Assembly (NCBI GenBank): GCA_963799845.1
Contig: CAWCYI010000006.1
Location: 1 to 64,000, forward strand
Direction of reading: 5' to 3'
Length of the DNA stretch: 64,000 nucleotides
DNA from: an uncultured Nitrososphaerota archaeon
GTDB lineage: Archaea > Thermoproteota > Nitrososphaeria > Nitrososphaerales > CADDZS01
Shown: piece by piece, positions 56,467 to 59,349 of the stretch
Numbering within the stretch: position 1 is the first letter of the stretch
Layout of the letters: each line of letters starts with the position of its first letter
Translations under genes and position numbers: made by a program
The notes under the pieces: model-generated
What the model was told of the DNA's origin: nothing
Database searches by the model: none
Seen by the model: the letters and a program-made list of their open reading frames with translations, nothing else

Positions 56467-57864
56467 CTAGCCGACAGATCCAATCATTTCTAACTGGATG
56501 AGTCTGTTTAACTCTACGGCGTATTCCATCGGAAGTTCTTTGGTGAATGGTTCGAGAAAGCCCATGACTATCATGCTCAGCGCATCGGACTCGTTCAGTC
56601 CTCGGCTCATGAGGTAGAACATTGCTTCCTCGCTGATCTTCCCGACGGTTGCTTCGTGGGTCGTATTCGCAGATTGCTCCTCGATCTCGTTGTATGGATA
56701 GGTATCGGTCCTGGACTTCTCATCGAGCAACAGCGCGTCACACCTGACGCTTGACTTTACTCCCGGCAATCCCTTGTCCACGTGGAGCATCCCCCGGTAG
56801 GTGGTCTGACCGCCGTCCTTGCTGACAGACTTGCTCGTGATCCTCGACGTCGTGTAGGGAGCGCGGTGGTAAATCTTTGCTCCGGCATCCTGGTGCTGAC
56901 CCGCTCCAGAAAACGCAATCGACAAGACCTCGCCCTTTGCTCTCGGTCCGACGAGGTAGATGGACGGATACTTCATCGTCAACCGACTGCCCAGGTTTCC
57001 GTCGACCCATTCGACGGTCGCGTCCTCGTACGCATACGCCCTCTTGGTGACGAGGTTGTAAACGTCCTTCGACCAGTTCTGGATTGTGGTATACCTCACC
57101 TTTGCACCCTTTTTCGCGATAATCTCGACGACGGCCGAGTGCAACGACTCAGATGAGTAGATTGGCGCGGTGCATCCTTCGATATAGTGGACCTCTGATC
57201 CGGGCTCTGCAATGATCAGAGTCCTTTCAAACTGTCCAATGTTTTTGCCGTTGATTCTAAAGTATGCCTGTAAAGGAACGTCTACTTTCACGCCAGCCGG
57301 AATGTGGACGAAACTGCCACCGCTCCAGACTGCAGTGTTCAGTGCTGCAAATTTGTTGTCGTTTGGCGGAATGATCGTTCCAAAATATCGCTTCATGACA
57401 TCCGGATATTCTTTCAGGGCAGAGTCCGTGTCAAGGAATATGACGCCCTTTTTCCCAAGGTCTTCCCTCAGAGAGTGGTAGACAACTTCAGACTCGTACT
57501 GCGCTCCGACTCCCCCGAGGAACTTGCGCTCGGCTTCGGGAATGCCCAGCTTGTCGAAGGTCTTCCTGATGTTTTCCGGGACATCCTTCCAGTCGGTCCC
57601 CATCTTTTCAGTCGGTTTCGAGTAGTAGAAAATGTTGTCAAAGTCGATCTTCGAAAGATCGCCGCCCCAACTAGGCATTGGACGATCCATGAAATAATCG
57701 TAAGCTTTCAGGCGGATGTTCTTCATCCACTCTGGCTCGTTCTTCATCTTCGAGATTTCTTCGACGGTTGCTCGCGTCAGACCTCTCTTGGACTTGAATA
57801 CCAGATCCTCGGGATCCCTGAAGTCGTACTTGCTGTAATCTTCATTGAAAACTTGCGTAGTCAT
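56467..57864 (-). CDS. sufB: Fe-S cluster assembly protein SufB
   Basis: [39 protein letters not shown]. Confidence 0.96.
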
Positions 57865-57915
57865 ACCCGATCGGATATATGACGTATGTTATATCTAATA
57901 AGCCTTGTGACGCGA

Positions 57916-58459
57916 GGTTCTGTAACGTCTTAGGTGGGCAGGTAAGGAGAGTGAGCTGAAAAATATGTTGCAAACTACGCCCTTTCTTTTATTTGACGGC
58001 AACTGTGCTGAAGCAATGACATTTTACCACGAATGTCTTGGCGGAGAATTAACCCTGACAAAACTTGGAGACACTCCCATGAAAGATCAATTCCCAAAAG
58101 AAAAGCATGAGAGAATGATTAACGCTCATCTCAAAAGTGGAGCAATTGAAATTTCTGCAACAGATTGGATGGCATCTCCCGCATTTCTGCCTAAGCAGGG
58201 CAACACTTATGCGATCTTTGTTGTTGGCGGAGCGTATGACGAGCTGAAAGCAGTGTTTGATAAGCTGGCAGTAGGAGCAGAAAAGGAAAGGTTTCAAGAA
58301 TTGCATGATTTGCCATTTGGAACGTATGGACAGTTTTATGACAAATATGGTGTTCAGTGGATTTTCAAGGGAGATAAACGACAGTCCTGATCATTAATTA
58401 TCTGCCGATTTGTTACAAGGAGAAGTTTATGCTTGATCAGCCGTGAACGTTACAGAACC
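57916..58459. mobile_element. Non-autonomous TIR element (IS6-like ends) carrying a passenger gene
   Basis: GGTTCTGTAACGT (57916-57928) and ACGTTACAGAACC (58447-58459) form a perfect 13-bp inverted repeat, flanked by TGACGCGA at 57908-57915 and 58460-58467. Confidence 0.85.
57965..58390 (+). CDS. VOC-family (PhnB-like) protein
   Basis: PFLLFDGNCAEAMTFYHECLGGEL, YGQFYDKYGVQW. Confidence 0.9.
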   Translation: MLQTTPFLLFDGNCAEAMTFYHECLGGELTLTKLGDTPMKDQFPKEKHERMINAHLKSGAIEISATDWMASPAFLPKQGNTYAIFVVGGAYDELKAVFDKLAVGAEKERFQELHDLPFGTYGQFYDKYGVQWIFKGDKRQS

Positions 58460-58534
58460 TGACGCGAGGTTCTGTATAATCTTCGCGGGGTCGAGGTCAA
58501 TTTTGAAGGTGTGTAAAGTCGATGGGTCTTCCCT

Positions 58535-58933
58535 TTAGCAGGTAATGAAAATGCTCTCTTCGCCAGATAAAGAAGTTCCACTCACTGACCATACGAAAAC
58601 ATTGACGCTGTAGTTTCCATACGCCAAGGTTATGACCAGATATGAAGTTACATTTTGTTCTTGTGCCGCGATAATTGTCGAAGTTGAAACTTCAAGCGTC
58701 TGTCCAATCGAATTATGGAATACACCAATCACAATTCCAGCGATTGAAACATTTTCCGTGTATCTAAGCGGTACTGTCATCGTCTTGTATTCACCGAGTG
58801 CCGAGCTGTAAGGTGTTGTTTGAGTAAACATGAATGGGCTGATGTAAGGCTGATCGGAGTTCTCGAAAAGCTGGATACCCATTCCAGAAATTAGTAATAT
58901 CACGAAAATTCTGGCTAAATTTGATAATATCAT
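58535..58933 (-). CDS. Hypothetical exported protein
   Basis: N-terminal hydrophobic helix followed by a beta-rich domain. Confidence 0.65.
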   Translation of the reverse strand: MILSNLARIFVILLISGMGIQLFENSDQPYISPFMFTQTTPYSSALGEYKTMTVPLRYTENVSIAGIVIGVFHNSIGQTLEVSTSTIIAAQEQNVTSYLVITLAYGNYSVNVFVWSVSGTSLSGEESIFITC

Positions 58934-58975
58934 ATACTCGGCTCTATGATTAACATTGGCCTTTCTCCTTAGCGG

Positions 58976-59349
58976 TCAGGGATCGGAACCCTTAGTCTCC
59001 TAGTAGAATTTCCCAAGGTTCGATCTTAATAGTTTTCAAAACGTCAATTGGAGTCCACGGATCGTCAGCTAACCATGTCTCGAGGGTCTTTTGGTTTTCT
59101 GTATTGAAAATTAGTAAGATCCTTTTGCCGTCGCCAATTGGGCCTCCTAGAATTACAAAACCTTTGCCCAAAGAGTTCCCATGTAATCAGAGTGTTGAGT
59201 AAATTGCTTCTGCTCGTTCATTGGTAGTGACTCATTCCACGCCGAACCATGTTCCCTTGTAACTGCGAAGTACTTCATGTTGGAATTTCTTACACCTCAT
59301 GGAGCCACAAAAGCTCTTTCGCCAAACTATCCTTTCAGGGATCAGAACC
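58976..59349. repeat. 15-bp direct repeat pair (14/15 identical) bracketing a YciI-like gene
   Basis: TCAGGGATCGGAACC at 58976-58990 and TCAGGGATCAGAACC at 59335-59349. Confidence 0.7.
58992..59278 (-). pseudogene. YciI-like protein with a one-base frameshift, absent from the ORF track
   Basis: MKYFAVTREHGSAWNESLPMNEQ...QHSDYM then GFVILGGPIGDG..ILLIF...LADDPW...IEPWEILLGD in the adjacent frame. Confidence 0.7.

Follow-up and report, generated by a model that had tools for sequence, protein, structure and literature searches.

Upstream of sufB in this archaeal genome (G000), one small gene lies between two insertion-sequence (IS) ends with no transposase between them, raising the question of whether the gene travelled here as a cassette or whether a longer IS has decayed in place around it. 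In our view the element is probably a mobile insertion cassette that derives, as a non-autonomous unit, from an IS6-like IS family of Nitrososphaerota (Thaumarchaeota): it carries the inverted repeats of the family, an 8-bp duplication, no internal transposase, and a passenger unrelated to transposition.

A single gene between two IS6-like ends

In the window, by which we mean the whole 64,000-nucleotide stretch of DNA analyzed, the element spans 57916-58459 (544 bp) and is flanked on both sides by TGACGCGA as an 8-bp direct repeat, giving the order TGACGCGA, GGTTCTGTAACGT ... ACGTTACAGAACC, TGACGCGA at 57908-58467. The inverted ends proper, GGTTCTGTAACGT at 57916-57928 and ACGTTACAGAACC at 58447-58459, are perfect over 13 nt each; the arms returned by the repeat search are 14 nt long (57915-57928 and 58447-58460) and 100% complementary. 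A preliminary description of this DNA had proposed a 544-bp element with an intact 8-bp duplication and a single VOC gene, and these are confirmed by the sequence, the repeat search, and a Pfam search. It had missed a third GGTTCTGTA end at 58468-58476, immediately past the right 8-bp repeat, as well as a full-length relative at the same flank in the genome G001 and the bacterial affinity of the cargo. The features of the locus are these:

56467-57864, minus strand: sufB (PF01458, E=9.4e-86)
57866-57907, no strand: sufB upstream region with the conserved palindrome TATGACGTATGTTATA and with CTAATAAG, abutted by the cassette; motif present in relatives
57908-57915, no strand: left 8-bp target-site duplication TGACGCGA, identical to 58460-58467
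57916-57952, plus strand: left terminal end; inverted repeat at 57916-57928, match to the family consensus up to ~57939, profile score 25.6 bits
57953-57964, plus strand: leader travelling with the gene; nucleotide homology with Chloroflexota and other homologues starts at 57953-57959, before the ATG
57965-58390, plus strand: cargo VOC / PhnB-like gene, intact, 141 aa (PF06983 and PF00903 above cut-offs)
58391-58459, minus strand: right terminal end; inverted repeat at 58447-58459, inner ~50 nt homologous to the IS end in G001, profile score 26.4
58460-58467, no strand: right 8-bp duplication TGACGCGA (repeat search), doubling as the gap that separates cassette and solo end
58468-58530, plus strand: solo end that belongs to a further element of this family, with the third GGTTCTGTA; profile score 20.1

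Because a third GGTTCTGTA begins at 58468, the exact direct repeat is 17 bp long (TGACGCGAGGTTCTGTA); extended with mismatches, it covers 31 nt at 81%. From 58468 on the sequence reads GGTTCTGTATAATC, which starts with the third copy of the terminal 9-mer. We rejected a tandem duplication as the source of the 17-bp repeat, the left and third ends being unrelated beyond the family consensus: they are alike at 15 of 51 positions, and 2030 of 5000 shuffles do as well. Given that these two ends resemble each other no more than shuffles do, the 17-bp repeat resolves into 8 bp of duplicated target and 9 bp of family consensus. The third end stands alone; no partner end scoring at least 9 was found up to C6:70000, and tblastn with the G001 transposase detected no transposase remnant downstream. 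Directly after the solo end lies a 132-aa ORF of no family (58535-58933, minus strand), which has a 48%-identical paralogue at G000:C4:1090052-1090411.

The element is AT-rich, as had been described, with 42.3% GC compared to 48.7% for the window and 51.9% for sufB. Its coding share is 426 of 544 bp (78%), and the encoded protein is intact and conserved. The absence of an internal transposase holds up as well: neither the ORFs nor Pfam reveal one inside the element, and tblastn with the G001 transposase found nothing in the window.

Chance is excluded as the origin of this structure by two observations. The terminal 9-mer occurs 3 times in the window where 0.30 are expected, a count reached in 1 of 100 shuffles; and a search of the 4.6-Mb genome combining a profile of the family ends with matching 8-bp flanks returned 2 elements, compared to 0 in a reversed-sequence control. 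This paired-end search covered G000 and 240 kb of fetched loci. Genome-wide, the 9-mer is found 23 times (about 35 expected), with no shared context among its occurrences. The one look-alike end, at C1:50538, was set aside, as it lacks a partner and sits in continuous sequence that was judged by eye to be coding.

An assembly or binning artefact, in which a fragment of a bacterial gene became joined to archaeal DNA at repeats, would fit a cargo that is most like bacterial genes and junctions so rich in repeats that they could mislead an assembler. Against it, independently built Logan contigs placed on 57300-59100 cross the two junctions and differ there at 0-1 positions. At the left junction these contigs come from runs X1 (57686-58187, 0 differences), X2, and X3, and at the right junction from X1 (58369-58521, 0 differences) and X4 (58384-58608, 1 difference); the flanks are also syntenic with the congeneric sufB. 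That contigs from four runs bridge the two junctions argues that the element is no assembly artefact, the outcome that the preliminary description had named as a refutation of its proposal, and we regard this explanation as extremely improbable. The four runs come from one soil study that may include the source sample and are thus not independent of the data.

The family of the ends, its transposase, and its abutted copies

The three ends all come from an IS6-like family found in this archaeal order; the transposase of the family combines a SWIM zinc finger with a DDE domain. Homologues of this transposase are present in 144 of the 301 genomes sampled from the order. We fetched 29 transposase loci, of which 14 are bounded by paired GGTTCTGT-type ends with a perfect 8-bp duplication (lengths 1983-3553 bp); the 15 others had no pair passing the filter. 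A 24-nt end profile was built from 28 ends of family copies bounded by target-site duplications. With this profile the cassette scores 25.6 bits at its left end and 26.4 at its right, and the third end scores 20.1, next to a best score of 21.2 in the reversed-genome control. Extra ORFs are a regular part of the family: every one of the 14 bounded copies has 1-5 of them, and among the 40 non-transposase ORFs that they hold, 5 have a Pfam match above the family cut-off.

The preliminary description had taken IS6-type ends plus an 8-bp duplication as the signature of the family, and this agrees with what we see in the order and with two published sources, which give GGTTCTGTTGCAAA as the bacterial IS6 end consensus (Harmer & Hall 2019, PMC6807381) and 8-bp repeats for the IS6 family (Varani 2021, PMC7986276). 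The termini of the thaumarchaeal family, GGTTCTGT, are near GGTTCTGTTGCAAA, and the family makes 8-bp duplications. It shares with IS26 and IS257 its termini, its duplication, and, putatively, a DDE_Tnp_IS240-type catalytic core. In contrast, its transposases are 370-390 aa long with an N-terminal SWIM zinc finger, and its elements measure 2.0-3.6 kb and carry their 1-5 extra ORFs, whereas bacterial IS6 elements have 0.7-0.9 kb and a single ORF. The score of the family also stays under the NCBIfam cut-off for IS6. For the G001 transposase (387 aa, a complete ORF), SWIM and DDE_Tnp_IS240 matches fall on the first 247 aa, where PF13610 reaches 22.9 bits against a cut-off of 27 with this partial query; the best NCBIfam match is transpos_IS6 (E=5e-33, whole profile covered), at 114.4 bits under a curated cut-off of 125. 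Archaeal 'IS6' elements may lie outside the family, as Harmer & Hall 2019 (PMC6807381) argue.

G001, an unpublished congeneric genome, is the source both of the transposase query and of a full-length element at the sufB flank. GGTTCTGTAACATCT is found in G001 at the same spot beside the sufB upstream region, with the 387-aa transposase ORF ~0.8 kb inward from this end. The probable limits of this element are L014:313 and L014:2359 (2047 bp), and no duplication flanks it; its far end was placed by eye and has a profile score of -1.1. Beyond the first 11 nt, the right end of the cassette is identical to the G001 end at 30 of 51 positions, which 0 of 5000 shuffles reach.

The order of the suf genes differs among these genomes. 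sufC lies directly upstream of sufB in G006-G011, an IS intervenes in G001, and in G000 the two genes are 8.5 kb apart, with sufC at C6:66406-67161 and the intervening block running from 57865 to C6:66405. IS ends mark the sufB side of this inserted block; at its sufC side no IS end was found. A near-palindrome, TATGACGTATGTTATA, occurs upstream of sufB (57880-57895) and upstream of sufC (G000:C6:67213-67228). Since the motif upstream of sufB is kept in 7 relatives of the family, it is likely an operator or promoter element of the suf genes. The AT-rich region upstream of sufB may also drive transcription of the cargo gene. In run X4, a single contig of 151 bp (depth 2, 7 differences) leads from the sufB flank to GGTTCTGT and then into another end-like sequence, a hint only that a related strain has a different element at this flank.

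A gap of exactly 8 bp separates the cassette from the solo third end. Searching the order with the pattern ACAGAACC-N(0-24)-GGTTCTGT, we found 27 distinct sites in 22 of 301 genomes, and the spacer is exactly 8 nt at 21 of them (3, 3, 6, 15, 20, and 21 nt at the remainder); the control pattern gave 4 sites. Where the neighbour is a bounded copy, at L029, L032, L037, and L048, the spacer is that copy's own duplication. With 21 of 27 abutted pairs at 8 bp, the family appears to insert next to resident ends, its insertions being drawn to their edge. Placement of an incoming element at the edge of a resident end is likewise described, in the main text of Varani 2021 (PMC7986276), for targeted insertion by IS26 and for IR-targeting by IS30 and IS911. 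The targeted events of IS26 are conservative, however, and create no new duplication, whereas the genome statistics of the thaumarchaeal family suggest that 8 bp are duplicated and left as the spacer.

Two genomes provide further transposase-less derivatives of the family, and a 2371-bp element in G000, described below, is another. In G270, an unpublished genome on which both the array and its short unit rest, three elements succeed one another with TGATATTT after each, and the last of them, 586 bp long, has a 93-aa ORF and no transposase. In G260 (L159:1512-2357, C79), an 846-bp derivative retains a C-terminal remnant of the transposase together with a 137-aa ORF that is HNH-nuclease-like by eye; the final 5 nt of a neighbouring end form part of its 8-bp duplication, GAACCGCC.

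The right junction of the cassette also forms a perfect 10-6-10 palindrome, TACAGAACCT-GACGCG-AGGTTCTGTA. This palindrome, together with a direct repeat of 17 bp and not 8, could point to a site-specific recombination cassette, in which the right junction would be the core site of a tyrosine recombinase, the 17-bp repeats would be attL and attR, and a 552-bp circle would have integrated. We find this very unlikely. The 9 extra repeated bases are the terminal consensus of the family, and the putative half-site at the left junction lacks a second arm (3 of 10 positions), so neither an integron site nor a tyrosine-recombinase site is seen there. At the right junction, two abutted IS ends explain the palindrome: the arrangement ACAGAACC-N8-GGTTCTGT arises 21 times in the order, between elements with DDE transposases, and its recurrence with unrelated spacers disfavours a tyrosine recombinase.

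At another locus of the family, L036 (G247:C175), whose ends lie at 758 and 3512, one 8-bp flank is the reverse complement of the other instead of its direct repeat, an arrangement that is the signature expected of IS-mediated inversion. These flanks and the G001 element that has no duplication could be taken as indirect hints of cointegrate transposition.

The cargo gene

The only long ORF in the element (57965-58390, plus strand) encodes a protein of 141 aa. It matches PF06983 with 28.2 bits (cut-off 24) and PF00903 with 23.5 bits (cut-off 20.6), and among PDB entries it matches 1u6l (E=2.6e-13) and 3oms, a PhnB protein (E=3e-4). It is not a YjdN equivalog (NCBIfam NF007537, 41.8 bits compared to a cut-off of 122); judged by family, it would be a small VOC protein that depends on a metal or binds a ligand.

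Across GTDB species representatives, the closest matches to the cargo come from Ktedonobacteraceae / 'Chloroflexia' MAGs, at 84-90% amino acid and 82-84% nucleotide identity. The nucleotide homology to these bacterial matches begins 6-12 nt ahead of the ATG, and the same limit upstream of the ATG is found among the bacterial loci themselves. Identity to other archaeal copies is 70-81% at the amino acid level, with the six closest in the order all from another family, Gagatemarchaeaceae, and it is 71% to the genome's own paralogue (C4:2045542-2045961), which has no family ends. The gene is patchy in the order, occurring in 21 of 301 genomes at E<=1e-10 and in 0 of the 6 other genomes of the genus. 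We built the phylogeny of the VOC gene that the preliminary description had called for: a quick maximum-likelihood tree with 88 rows places the cassette gene among 8 Chloroflexota rows with modest support (SH-aLRT 81-84), apart from three well-supported thaumarchaeal groups. These comparisons show a cargo of bacterial affinity that appears foreign to its host.

This affinity does not identify a donor. In 11 of 11 hosts checked, archaeal and bacterial (L058-L061, L073-L080), the GC content of the VOC gene falls 6-16 points short of that of its flanks, Chloroflexota included, so that the gene looks foreign in every one of them. Around homologues of the gene we found no sign of the family's ends, with 0 of 80 genome-collection loci having an end that scores at least 16 within 2 kb and 0 of 8 scanned loci of the order having one that scores at least 12 within about 1.5 kb. 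Relatives on catalogued plasmids are all less than 60% identical (35.7% for the best listed), and no phage match or relative on a viral contig was found. In a Chloroflexia MAG (L073:1858-2512), the closest bacterial homologue stands between inverted repeats ~41 nt long that both have TTC on the outside. The gene thus seems to sit there in a cassette-like frame of another type, an arrangement seen at 1 of 5 loci examined.

Movement, decay in place, and known systems

The assembly comprises 4.6 Mb in 9 contigs and is 86.7% complete, and the cassette is single-copy in it. Its partial SSU rRNA scores highest with the archaeal model (776 bits), in keeping with a thaumarchaeal host from soil metagenomes. 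The search for paired ends that had been proposed did bring up two elements in this genome, though the other is not the same cassette. This second element, 2371 bp long (C6:336646-339016; L053:647-3017), has IS6-like ends and a perfect duplication, AAAAAATC. Between its ends lie an IS110-type transposase and an ORF of 205 aa that matches no family; a different IS may have inserted into a non-autonomous element here. A scan of metagenomes with the left-end 20-mer found no second copy of the cassette, the 2 contigs that matched both carrying another element. On these contigs (L071:4122-4561 and L072:1692-2131), which hold no transposase, three family ends cluster in a span of 440 bp, and one of these ends has its first 20 nt in common with the left end of the cassette.

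An empty site would read CTAATAAGCCTTG-TGACGCGA-GGTTCTGTATAATC. The preliminary description had suggested looking for it, and none was found in relatives or in read contigs, which is a weak test, since even the nearest relative shares just ~80% identity and the reads are shallow; the Logan contigs over 57300-59100 showed no joint bypassing the element. Movement of a mobile insertion cassette is judged by a second copy or by an empty site; neither was seen, and the earlier claim of a recent insertion gains no backing from either.

The sole IS6-type DDE match above the Pfam cut-off in the assembly lies on C4 at ~1943.2-1944.3 kb and is broken up by three stops in four frames. No intact IS6-type transposase was found in the 86.7%-complete assembly; an intact relative exists in G001. 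The cognate transposase that the preliminary description wanted identified could therefore be traced at the level of the family (144 of 301 genomes, G001), and within the same assembly just as the frameshifted C4 gene. With a single copy of the cassette and no other IS6-type transposase gene in the assembly, mobilization in trans, as first claimed, was not borne out.

The single copy and the lack of an active transposase in the assembly speak for decay in place, in which a full-length IS already holding the VOC gene inserted beside sufB and later lost its transposase through an internal deletion, never having moved as a cassette. Extra ORFs are usual in full-length copies of the family (40 in the 14 bounded copies), and deletion derivatives with transposase remnants exist, as the 846-bp derivative in G260 shows. 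But the cassette has no transposase remnant inside, and 0 of 88 VOC genes examined lie within a transposase-bearing element of the family. The exact 8-bp distance from the resident end fits the insertion of either kind of element and so does not discriminate between the two histories. We consider decay in place unlikely, albeit with a real share of the probability, and infer that the element moved as a cassette.

Movement as a cassette might have proceeded as follows. The element would have been reduced to two transposase-binding ends (~37 nt and ~69 nt), with an interior of one VOC/PhnB-like gene and its 12-nt leader. A family transposase supplied from elsewhere would then have cut or copied this unit and joined it to the staggered 8-bp target TGACGCGA, which was duplicated in the process. 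The target would have lain exactly at the outer edge of a resident family end, next to the sequence upstream of sufB. The transposase presumably came from a G001-type element, perhaps the very one whose solo end remains.

Mobile insertion cassettes (MICs) include the IS231-related MIC231 of the Bacillus cereus group and the qnrS2 and qnrD MICs. Like these, the element beside sufB has no transposase, IS-type inverted ends around one or a few passenger genes, a target duplication, and presumed movement in trans. The ends of MIC231 are of IS4/IS231 type, whereas those of the cassette are IS6-like; its host is archaeal, and its mobility is putative.

Within the IS6 family, the main text of Varani 2021 (PMC7986276) lists two ORF-less MITEs and one passenger-carrying IS, ISDsp3. 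The IS6-family MITEs MITEBth2 and MITEHarch3 (227 and 336 bp) are likewise non-autonomous and have IS6-type ends. By definition, however, such MITEs have no intervening ORF (main texts of PMC7986276 and PMC6807381), whereas the cassette, at 78% coding, falls outside a class that has no coding capacity. ISDsp3 also joins IS6-type features with cargo but keeps its transposase (PMC7986276, main text). For archaea, the main text of Krupovic et al. 2019 (PMC6563490) reports that thaumarchaeal IS have 1-2 genes and that passenger-carrying transposons were undetected, thaumarchaea included. We found nothing further on archaeal mobile insertion cassettes or on thaumarchaeal passenger-carrying IS in the main texts of the literature. 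The suggestion that the element is possibly undescribed in archaea therefore stands, as far as main texts go: our searches of them brought up no cassette with ends of this family that carries a gene in an archaeon.

The IS6-like family of thaumarchaea, which is widespread, routinely carries extra ORFs and includes at least one clean single-gene cassette, with a cargo closest to bacterial genes, which makes it a testable vehicle for small-scale gene gain in soil archaea. Its 8-bp-spaced arrays provide a genomic signature for studying end-targeted insertion, and its bacterial cousins IS26 and IS257 drive the assembly of resistance-gene arrays. Taken jointly, these features allow a more tentative reading, which is conceivable but which we would not bet on, that the family is a gene-accretion system. 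Its transposase would aim at the 8 bp beside any resident end and so build head-to-tail arrays, in which full elements, solo ends, and single-gene cassettes share one 8-bp spacer and the cassettes bring in genes from across domains. If this is true, the family would be an archaeal counterpart of IS26 arrays that uses a different chemistry, one that duplicates the target.

Elsewhere in this genome (G000:C4:1514997-1516432; L054:598-2033), 1436 bp lie between two IS6-like ends whose flanks are alike at 6 of 8 positions, and inside this stretch is a 312-aa TnpB/Cas12f-like ORF.
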